Source of the DNA: Shigella phage SfIV
Strand: one strand, 5' to 3'
DNA length: 39,758 nt
Sequence record: KC814930
The notes beneath the pieces are model-generated. The model was given only the letters and a program-made list of their open reading frames with translations, was not told where the DNA came from and made no database searches. Positions 18,589-37,354 of this stretch are shown here, in pieces (the first letter of the stretch is position 1; each line of letters opens with the position of its first letter). The position numbers and the translations under genes were made by a program.

Positions 18589-19401
18589 CTAGACACTTCC
18601 GAGCCGCTGATAATATTGGTTTTCGTATTCAGTTGGTGGCATATGATCACTCGAACCATGCCGACGCTTACTGTTATAAAACATTTCGATGTAATCAAAA
18701 ATATCACCGCGAGCTTCTTCTCGCGTTCCGTAGATCTTTTTCTTTATCCGTTCACGTTTCAGTAGCTGGAAAAAACTTTCTGCGACTGCGTTGTCATGAC
18801 AGTTACCGCGACGGCTCATACTGCCCTCCAGCCCGTGTGATTTCAGGAACGACTGCCACTCATAGCTTGTGTACTGACTGCCTTGATCAGAATGAACCAG
18901 CACCTGCTTTTGAGGATTACGTCGCCACACGGCCATCAGAAGTGCATTCAGGACAATATCCTTTGTCATCCGGGGCTGCATTGACCAGCCAATAACTTTG
19001 CGCGAGAACAGGTCAACAACCACAGCCAGATACAGCCAGCCTTCGTGAGTCCGGATGTAGGTGATGTCCGTTACCCAACGCTCATCCGGTGCTTCCGAGT
19101 TGAACTGCCGCTGGAGCCTGTTGGGCGTCACGATGCTGGTTTCACCCTTACGTGCCCGTGGGCTACGGTACCCGACCTGAGCCCTTATCCCGGCACGCTT
19201 CATCAGTCGCCAGACACGGTTAACTCCGCACTGTTGTCCGGTATCCCGCAGGTCGAGGTGGATCTTGCGATAACCATAAACGCAACCCGACTCCAGCCAG
19301 AACTGCTTTATCAGCCCCGTCAGCCTCAGGTCAGCATGATGCCGCCGTGAATCCGGCTGCTGAAGCCAGGCGTAAAAACCACTCGGATGCACATCCAGCA
19401 C
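18589..19401 (-). CDS. IS3-family transposase OrfB (DDE catalytic domain)
   Basis: 270 aa; its frame is open upstream into the orfA 3' end, as expected for an OrfAB frameshift fusion. Confidence 0.85.
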   Translation of the reverse strand: MLDVHPSGFYAWLQQPDSRRHHADLRLTGLIKQFWLESGCVYGYRKIHLDLRDTGQQCGVNRVWRLMKRAGIRAQVGYRSPRARKGETSIVTPNRLQRQFNSEAPDERWVTDITYIRTHEGWLYLAVVVDLFSRKVIGWSMQPRMTKDIVLNALLMAVWRRNPQKQVLVHSDQGSQYTSYEWQSFLKSHGLEGSMSRRGNCHDNAVAESFFQLLKRERIKKKIYGTREEARGDIFDYIEMFYNSKRRHGSSDHMPPTEYENQYYQRLGSV

Positions 19402-19438
19402 CCGACAAAGCAGTCGGACAGGCCAGCAATGGGTGTTG

Positions 19439-19741
19439 TCACGGATAAAGGCGTACCTCAGTCGGACAGCTTTGCGAAGTACGCCGCTGTAGATTCAATA
19501 TGTCCCGTTCGTCGGTAACCCGCTTCAGCTCTTTCTGGAGGCGTCGGATCTCAGCCTGAGCGTCTGACTGGACTTTATTGGTTGAGGAATCCGGGCCATA
19601 TGCCTTTATCCAGGCATAAAGACTGTGGGTGGTGATACCGAGACGTGTTGCCACGCTGGAAACAGAATGGCCGCGATCAACAACCTGTTTTACCGCTTCA
19701 ATTTTAAACTCTTCGGGATAACGCTTACCGCTCATGGGCAC
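19439..19741 (-). CDS. IS3-family transposase OrfA (HTH)
   Basis: 100-aa ORF, N-terminal HTH-like segment, upstream of orfB within the IS. Confidence 0.8.
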   Translation of the reverse strand: MPMSGKRYPEEFKIEAVKQVVDRGHSVSSVATRLGITTHSLYAWIKAYGPDSSTNKVQSDAQAEIRRLQKELKRVTDERDILNLQRRTSQSCPTEVRLYP

Positions 19742-23197: not shown

Positions 23198-23243
23198 ATT
23201 CGTAATGCGAAGGTCGTAGGTTCGACTCCTATTATCGGCACCA
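23198..23243 (+). other. attP core: 3' 46 nt of tRNA-Thr (thrW-type)
   Basis: attcgtaatgcgaaggtcgtaggttcgactcctattatcggcacca matches the anticodon-stem-to-CCA portion of enterobacterial thrW as I recall it; the 5' half of the tRNA is absent; integrase gene ends 15 nt away. Confidence 0.8.
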
Positions 23244-23257
23244 TTAAAATCAATAAG

Positions 23258-24421
23258 TTACACATCATTAGTACCTTCCTTATTTTTTGACTGGGACAAA
23301 TTTGGGACCGATGGGTTCAGGATCGAGTCTATTTGCCGTGCGTGTTCGGTAAGGTGATTAGGTGCAAGGTGAGCATATCGACGAACCATTTCGATAGACT
23401 CCCAGCCTCCCATTTCCTGTAAAACTGACAACGGGACTCCGGCTTGAACCAGCCAACTTGCCCAGGTGTGTCTCAAGTCGTGAAATCTGAAATCATCAAT
23501 ACCAGCCCGTCTCAGCGCCGCTTTCCAGGCTGTGTTTGCGTCATACCGCATCTTCCTTACTGTTGGCGCTTTCGTTCCGTCTGGTTTGGTACAGCTTTCC
23601 TTGTACACAAATACCCAACGGTGATGATTCCCGATTTGTTTTTTCAATACGCGACATGCAGTATCATTCAGCGCAACGCCAATTGCGCGGTTTGATTTAC
23701 TCTCTTCCGGGTTTATCCATGCCACCCGGCGCTGCATATCTATTTGTTGCCATTCAAGGTTGATGATGTTCGAGCGTCTTAAGCCTGTTGCCAGTGCAAA
23801 TTCAACAACAGACTTTAATGGCTCCGGACATTCATCAATCAGCCTTTGTGCTTCATGGGGCTCCAGCCAGCGGATCCGTTTATTCTTTGGTTGAGGCACT
23901 TTAATAATTGGTGCCTTATCCAGCATTTTCCATTCACGCTCTGCGGCTCTTAGTAGGGCCTTTATAAATGAAAGATGCGTAGCCTTCGTTGCAACGGACG
24001 CTGGTTTTGGCGTGTATTCTGGAACAGGTTTCCCTTTTTTTCTGCATGCTTCTGCCCTGAGTTTCCAGTTTTCCTCATGACGCCGGTTCGTCATTTTCTG
24101 CATTGCTGAATAAATTTTTGATTCAGTAATGTCTCTTAGTTGCATTCCTGCGAAATGTTGAAGCCAGAATCCGATCCGGCTTTTGTCATCGTCCAGTGAT
24201 TTTTTATGTGCTTTCTCTTCAAGCCACCTGACACACGCTTCCTCGAACGTTATATCAGGTATTTCACCAAGTTTGCTGACCCGCCATGCTTCAGCCTTTA
24301 GCTTGTCATGGAGTTCTGTCGCCTGCCTTTTGTCCTTTGTTCCAAGAGACTGTTTAAATCTTTTACCGTTCGGCAATGTGAAACTGGCGTACCATATTTC
24401 ACCTCTGCGGAAGAGTGACAT
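23258..24421 (-). CDS. int: tyrosine integrase (P22-type)
   Basis: 387 aa; N-terminus [34 protein letters not shown] and C-terminal catalytic region ([10 protein letters not shown]...VRRYAHL) typical of phage tyrosine integrases; adjacent to attP. Confidence 0.9.
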
Positions 24422-28453: not shown

Positions 28454-28483
28454 TTGTTTCTCTTGGGTACATTATGTATCTCG
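28454..28483. promoter_or_regulatory. putative OL-type operator repeats
   Basis: Two copies of tgggtacatt (28454..28463, 28474..28483) sharing the GGTACA core with the palindromes between cI and cro. Confidence 0.4.
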
Positions 28484-28500
28484 TGGGTACATTGTCAAGT

Positions 28501-28525
28501 ATAAAAAAACCTGCCGAAGCAGGTT
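28501..28525 (-). terminator. rho-independent terminator downstream of cI
   Basis: aacctgc-ttcg-gcaggtt followed on the minus strand by TTTTTAT, 13 nt after the cI stop. Confidence 0.6.
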
Positions 28526-28537
28526 CATAAACATTGA

Positions 28538-29212
28538 TTAGGCTTTGATTTTGTATCTTCTTGGTTTTCCTGAGAAAATCACAGTTCCAATTATAGAGCA
28601 ATTACCGTTGATCTTAATGTAAGGCTCAGGCCAGTTTGGGTTTAACGCTTTGAGATAACGCTGTGTCCCATCTTCTATCAACCTTTTGAAGGTGGTTTCA
28701 CCTGTATCGTGCATCAATGCAATAACGTCGTCACCGTGGCAGGCTGGTACTTCAGGATCGACAAAAATCATGTCTCCCGGGCGGTACTCATCAATCATTG
28801 AATCACCTATCACCCGCAAGATATAAGTCATTTCCCCACAGGGTACAGGGCAGGGATACGTTTCTGCTGTGCTCAAATCAACCTCAGAATATCCAACTTC
28901 TTTCCATGCTCCGGCCTGTACCCATGATATGACAGGGACTAATGTGATTTGTTTATTAGTGATTGAAACATCAGGTTTTTTTGTGATGTTCGTTGTCTGG
29001 TGTTCTTGATCGAGCCATCCAACAGGCAGGTCGAAACATTTTTCGATGTGTCGTGCCATGCTGTCACCGATATTTTTAGTAGCACCATCTCCCATAAACC
29101 TGCTGGTCTGGGTTGGCTCGCGATCAATCATAGTGGCAAAGGAAGAATTCCCGCCAACACCATCTCTCAGTTTTCTGGCGTTAGACCGCCGGATGTCATG
29201 GATTGTTTTCAT
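28538..29212 (-). CDS. cI: CI-type repressor (HTH + S24 LexA-like peptidase domain)
   Basis: 224 aa; N-terminal HTH region and C-terminal S24 signature (VIGDSMIDEYRPGDMIFVD ... TFKRL); divergent from a cro-like gene across palindromic operators. Confidence 0.85.
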   Translation of the reverse strand: MKTIHDIRRSNARKLRDGVGGNSSFATMIDREPTQTSRFMGDGATKNIGDSMARHIEKCFDLPVGWLDQEHQTTNITKKPDVSITNKQITLVPVISWVQAGAWKEVGYSEVDLSTAETYPCPVPCGEMTYILRVIGDSMIDEYRPGDMIFVDPEVPACHGDDVIALMHDTGETTFKRLIEDGTQRYLKALNPNWPEPYIKINGNCSIIGTVIFSGKPRRYKIKA

Positions 29213-29227
29213 AACGAAATTAAAACC

Positions 29228-29300
29228 CTTGTACCGTTAAGGTACAAGTATCTTGAAGGTTCATTTTAATCATGTAATATGTACACCGGAGGTACATATT
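29228..29300. promoter_or_regulatory. OR operator region with two palindromic operators
   Basis: cttgtacc-gttaa-ggtacaag (29228..29248) and aatatgtac-accggag-gtacatatt (29276..29300) in the 90-bp cI/cro intergenic region. Confidence 0.7.
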
Positions 29301-29302
29301 GT

Positions 29303-29503
29303 ATGAAAGCGTATTGGGACTCTTTAACCAAAGAACAGCAGGGCGAGTTGGCCGGAAAAGTTGGCTCAACACCTGGCTACTTACGGCTGGTTTTCAATGG
29401 CTATAAAAAAGCCAGTTTTGTGCTGGCTAAAAAACTTGAGCAATGCACGTCAGGTGCAATTACGAAATCTGACTTAAGACCGGATATCTATCCGAAAGAT
29501 TAG
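29303..29503 (+). CDS. cro: Cro-like HTH regulator
   Basis: ATG at 29303 immediately after the second operator; 66 aa; divergent from cI. Confidence 0.7.
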   Translation: MKAYWDSLTKEQQGELAGKVGSTPGYLRLVFNGYKKASFVLAKKLEQCTSGAITKSDLRPDIYPKD

Positions 29504-29534
29504 CAGAACACTTTCAATTTTTAACCACAGAACG

Positions 29535-30098
29535 ATGAGGCTAACCGTGGGTAAGCATCACTGGAAAGTAGAAAAACAGCCTGAGTGGTACGTGAAAGCT
29601 GTCAGAAAAACTATCGCAAAGTTGCCGGGTGGTTACGCTGAAGCAGCTGACTGGCTGGATGTAACAGAGAACGCATTATTTAACCGCCTTCGTGCCGATG
29701 GCGATCAGATTTTCCCGCTGGGATGGGCAATGATTTTGCAACGTGCTGGTGGAACTCACTTCATTGCTGACGCTGTGGCGCAGTCTGCAAATGGCGTCTT
29801 TGTGTCTCTTCCTGACGTCGAGGATGTGGACAACGCCGATATTAACCAGCGTCTGCTGGAAGTCATTGAACAGATCGGCAGTTATTCAAAACAGATTCGT
29901 TCAGCAATCGAAGACGGTGTAGTGGAACCGCATGAGAAGACAGCAATTAACGACGAGCTGTACCTCTCAATTTCGAAGCTGCAGGAGCATGCAGCACTGG
30001 TCTACAAAATTTTTTGCATTTCAGAAAGTAATGACGCCCGCGAGTGTGCAGCTCCGGGCGCCGTGGCGTGTCGTGACTGTGGAGAAACTAACGCATGA
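29535..30098 (+). CDS. regulatory protein in the CII position
   Basis: 187-aa ORF following cro; assignment is by position only. Confidence 0.4.
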
Positions 30099-30433
30099 AC
30101 AGTTTAACAACACACTACCGTCGCTCGCAACTGATTGCGCTTCCTGTACCGGGTGGAAAAGCGAAGGTGGAGTATTGCTATGCAGTGAATGTACCAGGTG
30201 ACAGGGAAATTGTAACCCACAGCTTTGCAGAGTGGGCTGTGGGGGATTTCAACCGGCAGAAGGAGACAGTCCTTTGCGACAAGTTAATCGCTGGTTCAAA
30301 GATCACTACGGAGTGCCCGTCAGAGTCATTCGTTGGGAGCCGGAAACACAACGGGTTATCTACCTCCGTGAAGGCTATGAGCATGAGTGCTTCAGCCCGC
30401 TCGAACAGTTTCGTCGTAAATTCAGGGAAATAG
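30095..30433 (+). CDS. hypothetical protein (frame ambiguity with 30274..30453)
   Basis: ATGA-coupled to the upstream gene; a second frame (TTG at 30274 with strong SD aaggaga) encodes a more protein-like 59-aa product ending at 30453. Confidence 0.35.
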
Positions 30434-30442
30434 AGGTCGGTC

Positions 30443-31384
30443 ATGAGCACTAAATTAACCGGCTATGTATGGGATGGTTGCGCAGCGTCAGGCATGAAAT
30501 TATCCAGCGTGGCAATTATGGCCCGCCTGGCTGATTTCAGTAATGACGAAGGTGTGTGCTGGCCATCAATTGAAACCATTGCCCGTCAGATTGGCGCGGG
30601 GATGAGTACCGTCAGAACGGCTATCGCACGGCTGGAAGCAGAAGGCTGGTTAACGCGTAAGGCGCGTCGCCAGGGTAACCGCAATGCGTCGAATGTTTAT
30701 CAGCTTAACGTTGCGAAGCTTCAGGCAGCGGCATTTTCTCAACTGTCAGATTCTGACCCGTCAAAATCTGACGCATCAAAATCTGACCCGTCAAAATTTG
30801 ATGCGTCGAAATCTGGCAAAAAAGCGGGTTTTCACCCGTCAGAATCTGGCGGGGATCCGTCAGTAAAATCAAAACATGATCCGTCAGATAAAAAAACTTC
30901 TCGTCCGGACGCTTCGCAACCGGACACGCAGACGGCTGAACAGGAGTTTTTAACTCGCCATCCTGATGCGGTTGTATTCAGCCCTAAAAAGCGCCAGTGG
31001 GGAACGCAGGATGATTTGACCTGCGCACAGTGGCTCTGGAAAAAAATCATCGCCCTGTACGAGCAGGCCGCCGAATGTGACGGCGAGGTGGTTCGTCCCA
31101 AAGAACCGAACTGGACAGCCTGGGCAAACGAAATTCGCCTGATGTGTGTGCAGGATGGTCGTACTCACAAACAAATCTGCGAGATGTACAGCCGCGTCAG
31201 CCGCGATCCGTTCTGGTGCCGTAACGTGCTCAGCCCGTCGAAGCTGCGGGAAAAATGGGATGAGCTTTCCCTGCGCTTATCGCCGTCCGTCAGCACGTAC
31301 ACAGAAAAACGCGAAGACCCGTACTTCAAAGCCAGTTACGACAACGTGGACTACAGCCAGATCCCGGCAGGATTCAGGGGGTGA
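30443..31384 (+). CDS. replication initiator (lambda O-like, iteron-binding)
   Basis: 313 aa; N-terminal HTH-like region; central low-complexity segment (SDSDPSKSDASKSDPSKFDASKSG) encoded by the iteron repeats. Confidence 0.7.
   Translation: MSTKLTGYVWDGCAASGMKLSSVAIMARLADFSNDEGVCWPSIETIARQIGAGMSTVRTAIARLEAEGWLTRKARRQGNRNASNVYQLNVAKLQAAAFSQLSDSDPSKSDASKSDPSKFDASKSGKKAGFHPSESGGDPSVKSKHDPSDKKTSRPDASQPDTQTAEQEFLTRHPDAVVFSPKKRQWGTQDDLTCAQWLWKKIIALYEQAAECDGEVVRPKEPNWTAWANEIRLMCVQDGRTHKQICEMYSRVSRDPFWCRNVLSPSKLREKWDELSLRLSPSVSTYTEKREDPYFKASYDNVDYSQIPAGFRG
30743..30897 (+). repeat. iteron array (candidate origin of replication) inside the O-like gene
   Basis: At least six direct copies of a ~15-bp unit (gacccgtcaaaatct, gacgcatcaaaatct, gacccgtcaaaattt, gatgcgtcgaaatct, cacccgtcagaatct, gatccgtcag...), followed by an A-rich run. 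Confidence 0.7.
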
Positions 31385-31386
31385 TC

Positions 31387-31875
31387 ATGAGTCTTTTGAA
31401 TGAAGTTCAGAAATACATTGAAGCCCATCCGGGGTGTACTTCCGGAGACATTGCGGATGCTTTTGCAGGTTACTCACGGCAGCGCGTTCTGCAGTCAGCA
31501 AGCAAGTTACGTCAGAGTGGGCGTGTGGCTCACCGTTGTGAAGGGGATACACGCAGACATTTCCCGCGCCTGACTGAGAGAGCGCAGGAGGCGGAACCGC
31601 AACCAGTTCGTGAAACCAGACCTGTGCGCAATTTCTATGTCGGCACTAACGACCCGCGGGAGATTTTGTGCCTGACCCGCCAGGCTGAAGAACTGGAGTC
31701 CAGGGGCTTATACCGTCGTGCTGCAACGGTGTGGATGGCGGCATTCCGTGAAAGCCACTCCCAGCCAGAACGAAACAATTTTCTGGCGCGTCGTGAGCAG
31801 TGTTTACGGAAAAGCAGCAAGCGCGCTGTATCGAGTGATGAGTGGTATCTGTCAGGGAATTACGTGGGGGCGTAA
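31387..31875 (+). CDS. PerC-family transcriptional regulator-like protein
   Basis: ATG at 31387; C-terminal half carries GLYRRAATVWMAAF, resembling the PerC/Pch core motif as I recall it; occupies the lambda P position. Confidence 0.45.
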   Translation: MSLLNEVQKYIEAHPGCTSGDIADAFAGYSRQRVLQSASKLRQSGRVAHRCEGDTRRHFPRLTERAQEAEPQPVRETRPVRNFYVGTNDPREILCLTRQAEELESRGLYRRAATVWMAAFRESHSQPERNNFLARREQCLRKSSKRAVSSDEWYLSGNYVGA

Positions 31876-32201
31876 TGACGACGTTAACTCAATGCCAGCA
31901 GCAGGTGCTGGATATGCTGATTTCTTATCAGAAAGAACGTGGCTTCCCGCCAACCAATCAGGAGGTGGCAACCATGCTGGGATACCGTTCGGTGAATGCA
32001 GCGGTGGAGCATCTTCGCGCACTGGAGAAAAAAGGCGTCATCACGATAAAGCGTGGTGTGGCCCGGGGGATCACGCTTCATACCGTGGTGAAGGACGACG
32101 ACAGCGAGGCGGTCGGGATTATCCGCTCACTGCTTGCCGGTGAGGAAAACGCCAGGCTGCGTGCAGCCCACTGGTTACATGAGAGGGGCCTGAAAGTATG
32201 A
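31875..32201 (+). CDS. LexA DNA-binding-domain-like protein (no S24 peptidase domain)
   Basis: ATG at 31875 overlapping the upstream stop; MTTLTQCQQQVLDMLISYQKERGFPPTNQEVATMLGYRSVNAAVEHLRALEKKGVITIKRGVARGI parallels the LexA N-terminal winged helix; only 108 aa. Confidence 0.65.
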   Translation: MTTLTQCQQQVLDMLISYQKERGFPPTNQEVATMLGYRSVNAAVEHLRALEKKGVITIKRGVARGITLHTVVKDDDSEAVGIIRSLLAGEENARLRAAHWLHERGLKV

Positions 32202-32593
32202 AGCTGATCCTTCCTTTTCCGCCCAGCGTGAACACGTACTGGCGACACCCCAACAAAGGGGCGTTTGCTGGTAAGAGCCTGATAAGCGCGGCGGGGTGAA
32301 AATTCCAGAGCGCGGCGTGCGCAGCAATAGTTGAGCAGTTACGTCGTCTGCCGAAACCAACGTCGGCACCTGCTTCAGTGGAGATCGTTTTGTTTCCTCC
32401 GGATAACCGGATCCGCGATCTGGACAACTATAACAAGGCGCTGTTTGACGCCCTGACCCACGCGGGTGTGTGGGAAGACGACAGTCAGGTGAAAAGAATG
32501 CTGGTGGAGTGGGGACCGGTTATCCCGGAGGGGAAGGTCGAGATCACTATCAGTAAGTACGAAAAAGCGAGTTGCAAATTAGCAACTCGGTAA
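32198..32593 (+). pseudogene. rusA: rusA-like Holliday junction resolvase with in-frame TGA at 32297..32299
   Basis: Reading from ATG 32198 gives MKLILPFPPSVNTYWRHPNKGAFAGKSLISAAG then TGA; the same frame continues with ...RDLDNYNKALFDALTHAGVWEDDSQV..., the RusA catalytic region. Confidence 0.65.
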
Positions 32594-32638
32594 CGGAATT
32601 GAGCAACACCCTAAATTTGGGTATTACCTCGTTAAAGA

Positions 32639-32658
32639 TACTGTATTTATGAACAGTA
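32639..32658 (+). promoter_or_regulatory. SOS box (LexA operator) upstream of the antirepressor gene
   Basis: tACTGTatttatgaACAGta: perfect CTGT-N8-ACAG core with flanking TA, about 100 nt upstream of the KilA-N gene start. Confidence 0.7.
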
Positions 32659-32755
32659 TATCCTTGATAACTATTAAAAATCGCAGTAAGTTCATCCTGC
32701 ATCAACGAAAAGGGAGTGCAGTCCCGCTCGTGGATAAAAATTTGTGGAGAAACCA

Positions 32756-33571
32756 ATGAATCAGTTGCTTGTAATTGATGGCGTTTCTGTGCGCCAGTAC
32801 TTCGAATCTAACTACTGTCTTAACGACCTTCAGAAAGCTGCTCTTCTTGCCGCTGGTGAGAATCGCTCCTCCCGTTCGCTGGAAGTTCACGAGTTTATGC
32901 GTCGTCCTGAAACGAAGGCTCTTGTGGAATTATTGGAAGAAGAAACTACGGGAGATTCCCGTAGTATTCCTGTCATCACCATTCAGGGGCGCAATGGTGG
33001 GACGTATGTCTGTAAAGAGCTGGTCTATGCATATGCAATGTGGATCAGCCCGGCATTCAGCTTAAAAGTGATACGTACTTTTGATGCGCTTCATAATTCA
33101 TCACCAGAAGAAACCACATCCGACAAAATTAAATCCGGGGTCATTCTGCTTGAATCAGCAGCAAAGACTCTAAATCTGTCAAACTCCTCGAAACTTGGTG
33201 CATACCAGAAATTATCAAAGGTAGCTGGTCTTCCTGAACTTATGCCGATCTATGCCATTGATGCACCTGCTGATGCGCCAGATGGTTCAAGCCGCCCTAC
33301 GCTGTCGCTGAGTGCACTGCTGAAGCAGTATGGTATCCGCCTGACGGCTAATCAGGCATATCACCAGATGGTGAAGCTGGGGATCGTCGAGCAGCGCGAA
33401 CGATACAGCCGTACCTCGATTAACAACATCAAAAAATTCTGGTCGCTGACAGCGAAAGGCTGCATGTTCGGCAAGAACATCACCAGTCCCGCAAATCCGC
33501 GCGAGACGCAGCCGCATTTCTTCGAATCCCGATTCCCTGAGCTGTTAAAGCTGCTCGATACCGTTCATTGA
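32756..33571 (+). CDS. KilA-N domain antirepressor-like protein
   Basis: ATG at 32756 with SD ggag; the N-terminal ~110 aa look like a KilA-N domain (recognised by eye); SOS box upstream. Confidence 0.6.
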   Translation: MNQLLVIDGVSVRQYFESNYCLNDLQKAALLAAGENRSSRSLEVHEFMRRPETKALVELLEEETTGDSRSIPVITIQGRNGGTYVCKELVYAYAMWISPAFSLKVIRTFDALHNSSPEETTSDKIKSGVILLESAAKTLNLSNSSKLGAYQKLSKVAGLPELMPIYAIDAPADAPDGSSRPTLSLSALLKQYGIRLTANQAYHQMVKLGIVEQRERYSRTSINNIKKFWSLTAKGCMFGKNITSPANPRETQPHFFESRFPELLKLLDTVH

Positions 33572-33572
33572 G

Positions 33573-34568
33573 GTGACTGTGAGAGCACTACTGACCCCTG
33601 AAATTGCCCCGCGTATGGGGATCGTATTGTTCAGACCTGGTTCAGAGCTGATGCCCCTGTTTATGCAGGGGCGTGTCCTGCTGGAGCCTGAGCCGGAACG
33701 TTATTCATCTTTCGCCAGCGGTGCCGTTCCGGCGGCATCACAACCGCTGGCGGATGATCCTGCCGTTCGGGCCGTGTTCCGCAATGAGGCAGTGATCCGT
33801 CGTGCTGGTGGCGTGGAATGTCTTGAAAGCTGGTTACTTCGTGAAAAAGGCTGCCAGTGGCCTCATTCCGACTGGCACAGCGAGAACATGACCACAATGC
33901 GACACGCTCCGGGCGCAATCCGTCTGTGCTGGCACTGCGATAACCAGCTGCGCGATCAGTTCACGGAACGGCTGGAATCAATGGCAACGGATAACTGTGC
34001 CCGCTGGGTGTTGTCTGTTGTGCGTCGGGATCTCGGTTTTGATGATAGTCACGTTGTGACAATGCCGGAACTGTGCTGGTGGCTGGTTCGTAATGACCTG
34101 GCGGATGCCTTACCGGAAAGTGCAGCCCGTAAGGCACTGAGATTACCAAAGCCTGTTGTGCCGTCTGTCACCCGGGAAAGTGACCTTGTGCCTTCGGTTC
34201 CTGCCACCAGCATCATCCAGGATAAGGCAAAAAAGGTGCTGGCGCTGAAAGTGGATCCGGAGTCGCCGGACTCTTTTATGTTACGCCCAAAACGTCGCCG
34301 CTGGGTTAACGAAAAGTACACGCGTTGGGTTAAGACGCAGCCGTGCGCATGTTGTGGAAAACCTGCTGATGATCCCCACCACCTGATAGGCCACGGTCAG
34401 GGGGGAATGGGTACAAAAGCGCATGACCTCTTTGTGTTGCCTTTGTGCAGAAAGCATCACGACGAGCTGCATGCGGATACCGTGGCATTTGAAGAGAAGT
34501 ATGGCTCTCAGCTGGAGCTGATATTTCGTTTTATCGATCGTGCGCTGGCAACTGGCGTGCTGGCCTGA
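33573..34568 (+). CDS. DUF968-type prophage protein with C-terminal Cys/His motif
   Basis: 331 aa; C-terminus CACCGKPADDPHHLIGHGQGGMGTKAHDLFVLPLCRKHHDELH is a zinc-binding/HNH-like signature. Confidence 0.5.
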   Translation: MTVRALLTPEIAPRMGIVLFRPGSELMPLFMQGRVLLEPEPERYSSFASGAVPAASQPLADDPAVRAVFRNEAVIRRAGGVECLESWLLREKGCQWPHSDWHSENMTTMRHAPGAIRLCWHCDNQLRDQFTERLESMATDNCARWVLSVVRRDLGFDDSHVVTMPELCWWLVRNDLADALPESAARKALRLPKPVVPSVTRESDLVPSVPATSIIQDKAKKVLALKVDPESPDSFMLRPKRRRWVNEKYTRWVKTQPCACCGKPADDPHHLIGHGQGGMGTKAHDLFVLPLCRKHHDELHADTVAFEEKYGSQLELIFRFIDRALATGVLA

Positions 34569-34585
34569 TTTTGTGGAGAAATTTG

Positions 34586-34948
34586 ATGCGTGATATTCAG
34601 ATGGTTCTTGAGCGTTGGGGGGGATGGGCTGCTAGTGATAATTCAGGCGTTGACTATTCTCCAATCGCAGCAGGATTTAAAGGGCTTTTACCACAAACAG
34701 GTAAAAACAGACTCTCATGTACTGATGCCGACGGATTAATCATTGAGGGGTGCCTTGCTCGGCTGAAGAAGAAAAAACCTTATGAGCATTCGTTACTAGT
34801 AGCACATTATTTGTATGGTCTTTCTAAGAGAAAAATTGCTAAAGAAAAGAAAAAGGACGAGAAACTTATACGCATTGAGATTAAAATGGCTGAAGGATTT
34901 ATCGAAGGTTGTCTTTCAATGTTGGATATTAGATTAGAAATGGATTGA
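34586..34948 (+). CDS. Q: late antiterminator Q
   Basis: ATG at 34586 with SD ggag; MRDIQMVLERWGGWAA... N-terminus; a late promoter/terminator pair lies downstream. Confidence 0.7.
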   Translation: MRDIQMVLERWGGWAASDNSGVDYSPIAAGFKGLLPQTGKNRLSCTDADGLIIEGCLARLKKKKPYEHSLLVAHYLYGLSKRKIAKEKKKDEKLIRIEIKMAEGFIEGCLSMLDIRLEMD

Positions 34949-34955
34949 AGAAAAC

Positions 34956-34985
34956 AAAAAGGCGGATTTCAATCCGCCTTTTTGT
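34956..34985. terminator. bidirectional rho-independent terminator
   Basis: aaaaaggcggatttcaatccgccttttt: 8-bp stem flanked by A-run and T-run, between the convergent Q and membrane-protein genes. Confidence 0.7.
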
Positions 34986-35240
34986 TTAATGAGTCTATAA
35001 ATTCTTTCGTTTTTTTATTCGCTTCAGCTCTGTGTAATAAGATGCTTTTAAATCTCTGTATTTCGCTGTTTATTGAGCTGATAAAGAAAAAAGAATACAT
35101 TGCAGCAGCAATGCCTCCTCCACAAGCAGATATAAAATATAGATAAACTATCGACTCTCTGGAAATAGCGAACATACCAATTGCTGGTGATGCTGCCAAC
35201 TTACTGATTTAGTGTATGATGGTGTTTTTGAGGTGCTCCA

Positions 35241-35516
35241 GTGGCTTCTGTTTCTATCAGCTGTCCCTCCTGTTCAGCTACTGACGGGGTGGTGCGTAAC
35301 GGCAAAAGCACCGCCGGACATCAGCGCTATCTCTGCTCTCACTGCCGTAAAACATGGCAACTGCAGTTCACTTACACCGCTTCTCAACCCGGTACGCACC
35401 AGAAAATCATTGATATGGCCATGAATGGCGTTGGATGCCGGGCAACAGCCCGCATTATGGGCGTTGGCCTCAACACGATTTTACGTCACTTAAAAAACTC
35501 AGGCCGCAGTCGGTAA
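35241..35516 (+). CDS. insA: IS1 InsA
   Basis: 91 aa, [43 protein letters not shown]... Confidence 0.9.
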
Positions 35517-35938
35517 CCTCGCGCATACAGCCGGGCAGTGACGTCATCGTCTGCGCGGAAATGGACGAACAGTGGGGCTATGTCGGGGCTAAATCGCGCC
35601 AGCGCTGGCTGTTTTACGCGTATGACAGTCTCCGGAAGACGGTTGTTGCGCACGTATTCGGTGAACGCACTATGGCGACGCTGGGGCGTCTTATGAGCCT
35701 GCTGTCACCCTTTGACGTGGTGATATGGATGACGGATGGCTGGCCGCTGTATGAATCCCGCCTGAAGGGAAAGCTGCACGTAATCAGCAAGCGATATACG
35801 CAGCGAATTGAGCGGCATAACCTAAATCTGAGGCAGCACCTGGCACGGCTGGGACGGAAGTCGCTGTCGTTCTCAAAATCGGTGGAGCTGCATGACAAAG
35901 TCATCGGGCATTATCTGAACATAAAACACTATCAATAA
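35435..35938 (+). CDS. insB: IS1 InsB frame (expressed as InsAB' by frameshift)
   Basis: 167-aa ORF overlapping the insA 3' end in the -1 frame. Confidence 0.9.
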
Positions 35939-36283
35939 GTTGGAGTCATTACCCCAATTGCTCCTGAAAAAGCAGCAATAAGATAAAAAAAGATAAGAAA
36001 TCCAAGATGTCTTTTTTTTGCATCAATTATCGGTCGTAATCTTCTTAGTTCATTATCTGATAGTGATGTGTTTTCGTCGGCTTCAGAAACTTTAAAAAAG
36101 GCTGCGATACAATAACTGAAAGGGAATGCTAATAAGGTTATTAATGACCATGGAGTAGATATGCCACTTAAGTCAATTTTTCTAGATGCAAAGTAAAATA
36201 TTGCAAACCCAAAAGCGAAGGCGGATAAGAATCTTATAATAAATTTAAAGAAGCTCATTTCCGCCTCCTGTTGGTTCTAGTTT

Positions 36284-37354
36284 TTAACTTTTACTTCTCC
36301 AGTTTGAACCTTTGAAGTCAGCCATTTGTAAATATAAATCATTTTCATCAATAAGTCCATTGTTATATTGGACGTTTACTTTACCGGATAGTTTTAAATC
36401 ACTGCCTTTAATTATGCCACCACCTTGAAGGTTTATACTAATATCTTCATTGTCTATATTTCTGAGTGAAGTTGCTAAAGTATCGAGTACACGTTGACCA
36501 TCTTTGTTTGTCTTGCGGAAATAGGTTATTTCTAGATTAACTTGTAAATTGGATTCATCAAGAGAATCTTCCAGTTGTAAATTATTAAACCATGCTTCGC
36601 CAAAAGCAGCTTTTATAATATCGCCACCTTTACCAGTTGGCATGAATTTTATTTTCTTAACTTTTTCGACCTGTTCTTTTATTGTTGTGGGGAGGTCGTT
36701 TGTGTTACTTATATTATTTATTTTAACTACATCTTCAGAATCAGAATTTTTGATTGGGATACTGCCGAAATTTATTTTCTTGACTGGACTTTCATGCATT
36801 TTTTTTATGGTGTCTTCAGTTGGTTTATCTTGAAGTACAAGGAAGTCGTCACCATTAAAAATAGTGCTAAATGAATGGATTAACCAATTAAGATGGCTTT
36901 CTATGTCTTTAGTCCTTAGAGCCGGTGATTGGACGATCATCACATGATTATCACGAATCCCAAAGTAAAGTATTGAATCAATAAATTCTCGTGTTATTTT
37001 TTGTTTTTCAGCTTCACTTATTTTTTCGTCTTCGGCTAATTTAATTTGCTTCGATGTTATAGCATTGATGTCATAATAATTGACATCATCAGCGATTGTC
37101 ATAAGTGTTTGGCTTTTACCTTGTTCAAACAAAATAAGTTGCCCGAATAACACTGTCTTGAAAGTGCTGCTGCGGTTAACCACTCTAAATCCACTATTGC
37201 TATCGGAGGGGTTAATCTGTTCTCTTCTTGCGCTAACTTTATAGGCTGCGCCATTTTCAGAAATTATAGATTCTATGATCTGTTGAAGCGTTGCTGTGCA
37301 ATTAGGGATGACTGCACGTTTATATTGAATGACCTTGCTGCGGCTTTCTTTCAT
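36284..37354 (-). CDS. hypothetical 356-aa protein, first gene of AT-rich two-gene module
   Basis: Long ORF with SD aaggaa upstream, very AT-rich, Lys/Asn/Ile-rich, no family or catalytic motif recognised by eye; immediately upstream of the split membrane gene. Confidence 0.6.
   Translation of the reverse strand: MKESRSKVIQYKRAVIPNCTATLQQIIESIISENGAAYKVSARREQINPSDSNSGFRVVNRSSTFKTVLFGQLILFEQGKSQTLMTIADDVNYYDINAITSKQIKLAEDEKISEAEKQKITREFIDSILYFGIRDNHVMIVQSPALRTKDIESHLNWLIHSFSTIFNGDDFLVLQDKPTEDTIKKMHESPVKKINFGSIPIKNSDSEDVVKINNISNTNDLPTTIKEQVEKVKKIKFMPTGKGGDIIKAAFGEAWFNNLQLEDSLDESNLQVNLEITYFRKTNKDGQRVLDTLATSLRNIDNEDISINLQGGGIIKGSDLKLSGKVNVQYNNGLIDENDLYLQMADFKGSNWRSKS

Follow-up and report, generated by a model that had tools for sequence, protein, structure and literature searches.

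An internal opal codon in the rusA resolvase gene of Shigella phage SfIV, probably an ordinary nonsense lesion

The genome of Shigella phage SfIV (record KC814930), analysed here over its whole stretch of 39,758 nucleotides and referred to below as the window, contains a reading frame resembling the Holliday-junction resolvase RusA in which a TGA stands at codon 34. This locus raises the question of whether the opal codon is a plain nonsense mutation or a point at which the ribosome reads on, and the original prediction had left both possibilities side by side. We consider it very probable that rusA is an ordinary nonsense pseudogene of a decaying SfV/SfII-like prophage, created by a single C to T change (CGA to TGA, R34*). 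The features on which the argument relies are collected in Table 1.

Table 1. Features of the rusA locus, lesions of rusA in relatives and insertion sequences of the window (nt, position within the rusA gene).
Feature	Position	Strand	Basis or remark
LexA-DNA-binding-domain gene, upstream	31875..32201	+	RefSeq, PF01726, sequence
rusA pseudogene, frame of a RusA-family Holliday-junction resolvase	32198..32593	+	translation, PF05866, 1Q8R, RefSeq label
33-aa N-terminal peptide MKLILPFPPSVNTYWRHPNKGAFAGKSLISAAG, without catalytic residues	32198..32296	+	ORF list, 1Q8R alignment
Opal TGA, codon 34 (Arg34 CGA to TGA, C to T at 32297)	32297..32299	+	DNA alignment, allele counts
Residual 71-codon C-terminal ORF, GTG start	32378..32593	+	ORF list, sequence
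Catalytic codons D74 (32417-32419), D76 (32423-32425), K80 (32435-32437), D95 (32480-32482)	32417..32482	+	1Q8R/2H8C alignment
KilA-N gene, downstream	32756..33571	+	RefSeq, PF04383
+T frameshift	near nt 201, relatives L031, L037, L127		
K26*	relatives L078, L117		
Insertion of ~1.3 kb in rusA	relative L087		
K53*	relative L134		
Apparent indel	near nt 111, relative L132		inferred from shifted mismatch pattern
IS3-family element	~18589-19741	-	ORFs of 270 and 100 aa
IS1, 768 bp	35186-35953		ORF 35435-35935 matches Pfam DDE_Tnp_IS1, E 5.9e-78

The rusA frame and its predicted products

On translation, the rusA frame comprises 131 codons followed by a TAA and is broken at codon 34. From the ATG at 32198 to the terminal TAA at 32591-32593 it remains a single frame without any frameshift, interrupted by the in-frame TGA at 32297-32299. 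The base 3' of this TGA is an A, which gives a UGA-A context, and position 32297 lies between homopolymer runs of G and A (GGGG-T-GAAAA). With the stop masked, the translation matches the Pfam family PF05866 with an E-value of 1.8e-14 (54.9 bits for a cut-off of 22.8) over residues 6-118, that is, model positions 1-123 of 124. Likewise, phmmer aligns residues 3-120 of the masked translation, without a break, to residues 6-116 of the E. coli RusA chain 1Q8R (E 3.8e-18). Because both alignments cross codon 34, the similarity to RusA is continuous through the TGA, in agreement with the earlier claim of a single in-frame opal codon in a RusA-like frame free of frameshifts. Scored alone against the Pfam RusA model, the C-terminal 71 amino acids are still recognized (E 1.6e-11); the N-terminal 33 amino acids, a fragment too short for this purpose, stay below significance. 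Altogether, the TGA at codon 34 leaves no uninterrupted ORF for a RusA subunit of ~14 kDa, and rusA is therefore classed as a pseudogene. As far as its sequence tells, the window copy is a pseudogene of the RusA family, whose characteristic activity is the Mg2+-dependent cleavage of Holliday junctions by a dimer, and not a functional member of it.

The residues on which the activity of E. coli RusA depends are the DNA-binding Arg69 and the catalytic Asp70, Asp72, Lys76 and Asp91 (PMC10956419). In the alignment with 1Q8R and 2H8C, D70, D72, K76 and D91 correspond to D74, D76, K80 and D95 of the window frame, and R69 to R73. The window thus still encodes the whole Asp-Asp-Lys-Asp set together with the equivalent of Arg69, in a segment (RDLDN..K...DD) conserved with respect to 1Q8R. 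The codons for these five residues span 32414-32482, entirely downstream of the TGA. We propose that ribosomes reach rusA, probably through coupling with the LexA-like ORF that overlaps it, and that termination by RF2 at codon 34 would free a 33-residue peptide devoid of DNA-binding and catalytic residues. This peptide is the sole product to be expected in quantity and, judging from the alignment, no active resolvase dimer would be formed. Translational coupling is suggested by the overlap between the TGA stop of the LexA-like gene (32199-32201) and the ATG of rusA, which share the sequence ATGA at 32198-32201.

RusA from E. coli K-12, encoded by the DLP12 prophage (structures 1Q8R, 2H8C and 2H8E), belongs to the same fold family as the window copy and shares with it the conserved catalytic and R69/R73 positions, but the two are distantly related in sequence (phmmer E 3.8e-18 for an alignment of 118 residues). 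Both genes encode prophage-borne resolvases that the host normally leaves unused. The K-12 gene is silent unless an upstream IS insertion activates it (PMC10956419). Its ORF is intact and the silencing occurs at the level of transcription, whereas in the window the ORF itself is broken.

Downstream of rusA, a gap of 162 nt precedes the KilA-N gene. Since a scan of 31300-33000 found no sigma-70-like promoter, the KilA-N, DUF968 and Q genes are probably co-transcribed with rusA, and Rho-dependent polarity exerted on these three genes by the premature stop would be conceivable. The same scan found no terminator-like hairpin on the plus strand of this interval, where only minus-strand ones were reported. 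Among the latter is a hairpin with an 8-bp stem (CGAGTTGC-loop-GCAACTCG) at 32568-32589, which overlaps the last codons of rusA and was scored as terminator-like for the minus strand alone.

Ancestry, frequency and origin of the stop allele

A megablast search with positions 32100-32700 as the query (601 bp) retrieved closely related sequences from 48 phage records, the best match in INPHARED reaching 99.2%, and from 2299 of the 5426 complete E. coli genomes. The complete E. coli genomes together contain ~2977 copies of rusA. RusA genes of SfII/SfV/mEp460-type phages and of E. coli prophages (WP_000767110.1 from strain ST3; PhiR49_1) resemble that of the window with 96-99% nucleotide identity. 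These relatives also share its gene order, namely a replication gene, PerC/YfdN, (Dam), the LexA-like gene, rusA, KilA-N, DUF968 and Q. In the DNA alignment, codon 34 is CGA (Arg) in PhiR49_1, E. coli ST3 and Shigella phage SfII, as it is in all the intact relatives compared, whereas the window has TGA and differs by one C to T transition at 32297. The ancestral codon had been predicted to be either TGG (Trp) or CGA (Arg), and the comparison with related phages decides for the latter. Apart from the stop, the RusA protein of the window is identical to those of PhiR49_1 and E. coli ST3.

Missing from the window is the Dam methyltransferase gene, which PhiR49_1, ST3 and SfII carry two genes upstream of rusA. 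This gene of ~650 bp, of the Dam-type N6-adenine methyltransferase kind, is found in these three relatives between the yfdN/PerC-like and LexA-like genes, and it is absent from both the window (31381-32201) and E. coli CFSAN061762. A mosaic junction is also visible within the last ~30 nt of rusA (window ~32562-32593). Two alternative C-termini of RusA exist, ...YEKASCKLATR in a 396-nt gene and ...YEKTAGAAA in a 390-nt gene, and each of them goes with its own downstream KilA-N module, the intergenic distance being 162 nt and 19 nt, respectively.

Allele frequencies were obtained by megablast with 31-base queries that have the variant base in the middle, an arrangement in which no 28-base seed word can miss it; the genome counts given for the T and C alleles are lower bounds, as copies with another SNP in the 31-mer escape. 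The T allele was found in 2 of the 5426 complete E. coli genomes (CFSAN061762 and 14EC007) and the C allele in at least 1130 of them, at 1227 places, which puts the T allele at about 0.2% of copies. Exact 31-mers in IMG/VR gave a similar picture, with T on 3 contigs and C on at least 120. At the loci that were fetched, codon 34 reads CGA in 117 cases and TGA in 7, three of the latter being fragments of the CFSAN061762 record that overlap one another. When the truncated 71-aa product was looked up, it was found on 4 public contigs, one of which, Logan ERR15609806_3023, added a further identical T allele. The TGA 31-mer had no match in a species-representative genome collection holding one genome per species. 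The stop is thus not conserved at codon 34 among homologues (CGA in 1130 genomes, TGA in 2); it is a single derived substitution of low frequency relative to the intact orthologues, one C to T at ~0.2%.

The 601-bp rusA region is 100% identical to that of E. coli CFSAN061762 (NZ_CP042901.1), where the gene, CA898_RS18370, is labelled by RefSeq/PGAP as a pseudogene with an "internal stop". The identical sequence, stop included, is thus already flagged in public annotation. That the lesion is a fresh nonsense mutation, as originally proposed, agrees well with a single C to T change, a rare allele and a protein otherwise identical to intact copies. The word fresh nevertheless has to be qualified: the TGA allele is neither a read error nor a private mutation, the identical gene being present in several assemblies.

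The T allele occurs on two rusA haplotypes. Haplotype A comprises the window, CFSAN061762, the IMG/VR contig L009 and the Logan contig L131; haplotype B comprises 14EC007 and the IMG/VR contigs L008 and L010. The two haplotypes show 8 differences in their first 365 nt and diverge at the 3' end (genes of 396 nt and 390 nt), and the prophages that carry them have different repressor, replication and Q modules. Within each haplotype, by contrast, the assemblies are near-clonal, with at most 1 mismatch in 2.8-11 kb. Since the CGA-bearing L115 is an exact twin of haplotype B except at nt 100, the simplest reading is that the T allele probably arose twice, by independent C to T events. Alternatively, the shared T may come from a conversion tract that lies within nt 72 to 151 and is shorter than 78 bp. 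As for the age of the lesion, haplotype A differs from the nearest intact haplotype by 3 further nucleotides, and all three changes are synonymous; had they accrued after inactivation, such an outcome would have a chance of about 0.01-0.03 (85:278 synonymous to non-synonymous sites). The stop is for this reason probably younger than haplotype A itself.

Finding R34* on two haplotypes could be a hint of a mutational hotspot or of selection. In rusA, 47 single substitutions, 11 of them transitions, create a stop, and the gene has 2 CGA codons. Four independent nonsense events were counted in the sample, namely R34* twice, K26* and K53*. Spreading these four events equally over the 47 or the 11 routes, our own arithmetic gives a same-site coincidence by chance of ~12-46%, and on these route counts the recurrence of R34* is unremarkable and compatible with chance. 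Two possible sources of the mutation were considered by eye, and neither found support. The direct repeat AGCGCGGCG (32284-32292 and 32309-32317) puts no T at the matching offset, as a templated mutation would, and the mutated C lies outside any Dcm site (CCWGG), where a methylation hotspot would be looked for.

Other copies of rusA have been inactivated by unrelated lesions (Table 1). On the other hand, the 70 gap-free rusA haplotypes contain 47 synonymous and 21 non-synonymous segregating changes (pN/pS ~0.14), which shows that purifying selection acts on the intact gene in this group of phages. Altogether, the patterns of polymorphism and loss describe rusA as a useful yet dispensable accessory gene that is repeatedly lost in prophages.

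Readthrough and other readings of the opal codon

A UGA followed by an A is a comparatively weak terminator, and the readthrough values obtained in K-12 may exceed what holds for natural isolates, which have a more active RF2. In K-12 reporters, misreading of UGA by Trp-tRNA amounts to ~2% at 37 C and 4% at 25 C (PMC10570021). Codon 34 of the window is comparable to the UGA codons concerned by this background readthrough in E. coli, at which RF2 competes with Trp-tRNA; the phenomenon is a general property of UGA, whereas the window locus shows no conserved context or structure. An Rfam scan of 31800-33000 (E<=10) returned nothing near the stop and three chance-level matches elsewhere. When the 81 nt from the stop onwards (32290-32370) were folded in search of a SECIS-like or stimulatory structure, the z-score was -0.74 and 48 of 200 shuffled sequences did equally well or better. 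Traces of full-length RusA(R34W) are possible through passive UGA leakiness, and full-length protein would arise solely through this background misreading by tRNA-Trp, with no programmed signal. A Trp at residue 34 might be tolerated, since the E. coli RusA residue aligned with Arg34 in 1Q8R, Gln32, does not figure among the catalytic or DNA-binding residues (PMC10956419). The original prediction had offered low-level UGA readthrough as its second option; what holds of it is the passive leakiness of any UGA-A, whereas conserved or programmed recoding finds no support.

One could go further and assume that the UGA-A has been kept as a leaky attenuator, tRNA-Trp readthrough providing a low amount of RusA(R34W) and limiting a nuclease that is maybe harmful in lysogens. 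Readthrough of ~2-4% in E. coli K-12 reporters (PMC10570021), the A after the stop, the alignment of Arg34 with a non-catalytic glutamine and the presence of R34* on two haplotypes would all agree with this proposal. We nevertheless regard it as highly improbable. The allele is present in only ~0.2% of copies, each haplotype amounts in essence to a single clonal lineage of prophage, and the other lineages lose rusA by frameshift, insertion or other stops, which are not leaky alike. Moreover, neither Rfam nor folding against shuffled sequences points to a stimulatory structure, and the recurrence is compatible with chance by our own arithmetic. A bolder version, to which we grant an even slimmer chance, would make R34* a recurrently selected 'dimmer' that arises independently in different SfV/SfII-like prophages and supplies RusA(R34W) at the percent level without the cost of full expression in lysogens.

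A sequencing or assembly error, the true codon being CGA, could be invoked on the grounds that the lesion concerns a single base located between G and A homopolymer runs. It is a substitution, though, and not an indel; an identical T-bearing rusA is found in the complete genome of CFSAN061762, in IMG/VR UViG_2703718856_000009 and in Logan ERR15609806_3023, and the same T is present in three haplotype B assemblies, which makes an error very unlikely indeed.

We see just as little likelihood in a split gene, whose 71-residue C-terminal ORF would be re-initiated at the GTG and act as a shortened resolvase. This fragment retains all the catalytic residues and scores as RusA (E 1.6e-11), and gene callers have annotated the 71-aa ORF on 4 public contigs. 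However, the GTG at 32378, the first in-frame start past the TGA, lies 78 nt after the stop, and no Shine-Dalgarno sequence precedes it (32363-32373 reads gtcggcacctg). The product would also miss the first 60 residues of RusA, roughly half of the fold in the 1Q8R alignment, and RusA works as a dimer that requires the entire fold (PMC10956419). Re-initiation yielding an active enzyme is thus unlikely, given the lack of a Shine-Dalgarno sequence and of these 60 residues, and the truncated gene calls are a by-product of various upstream lesions with no conserved architecture.

Finally, programmed recoding, by selenocysteine insertion or by an alternative genetic code in which UGA means Trp, has for it merely a UGA codon followed by a continuing frame and is of practically negligible probability: the codon that is ancestral, and by far the most frequent, specifies Arg (CGA) and not Cys, Sec or Trp, selenocysteine or another structured recoding is ruled out by the Rfam scan and by the shuffle folding, which gave no match and no significant downstream hairpin, and an alternative code is ruled out by the termination of 17 of the 32 window genes at TGA, including the overlapping upstream LexA-like gene, in a phage whose host, E. 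coli, uses the standard code.

The prophage around rusA

Nonsense decay of rusA, the reading that we prefer, would be understandable in a host that has RuvABC and RecG, since these would make rusA dispensable enough to decay; being dispensable, its TGA allele would persist in a prophage lineage that is also gaining IS insertions. The correct label for the locus is a rusA pseudogene (R34*, CGA to TGA), and neither two small ORFs nor a recoding site. The locus adds a further case in which lambdoid and SfV-like prophages carry accessory genes for recombination that are dispensable in RuvABC-proficient hosts and repeatedly lost by unrelated lesions. Beyond the correct annotation, its importance is small.

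The CFSAN061762 prophage, which is SfV/SfII-like and integrated at the tRNA-Thr gene thrW beside proA, allows the lineage to be followed outside rusA. It is 100% identical to the window over 30608-35185, TGA included, and 99.3-99.9% identical elsewhere; within 29523-35185, all the SNPs between the two fall in 29619-30607. Opposite window positions 28455-29523, on the other hand, CFSAN061762 has a different immunity (repressor) module, with flanks that are 99.3-99.6% identical, as if a mosaic exchange of modules had taken place inside the lineage that carries the rusA nonsense allele. A segment of 64 bp (23198-23261) maps to both ends of the CFSAN061762 prophage at thrW and, on this mapping, is the att core; matching both prophage ends, it indicates that the window is in the excised, cos-first order and is not an integrated prophage. 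No tRNA gene was detected in the window.

Together with the rusA stop, two insertion sequences mark the phage genome as being in early decay. The IS1 copy, absent from CFSAN061762, is flanked by a 9-bp target duplication (35177-35185 and 35954-35962). It disrupts a hypothetical gene located on the opposite strand between the antiterminator Q gene and the lysis genes, and it could affect late transcription. The IS3-family element sits among the tail-fibre assembly genes, and the assembly gene adjoining it is annotated as incomplete in CFSAN061762. The prophage may be tail-defective, or one of its alternative fibre sets may be gone.

The window also carries opposite-strand, moron-like cargo between Q and the holin gene (35932-37354, minus strand), made of an ORF of 356 aa and what is left of an ORF of ~170 aa. 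RefSeq labels both as 'hypothetical' and neither has a Pfam match; they could represent an uncharacterised pair of lysogenic-conversion or defence genes.
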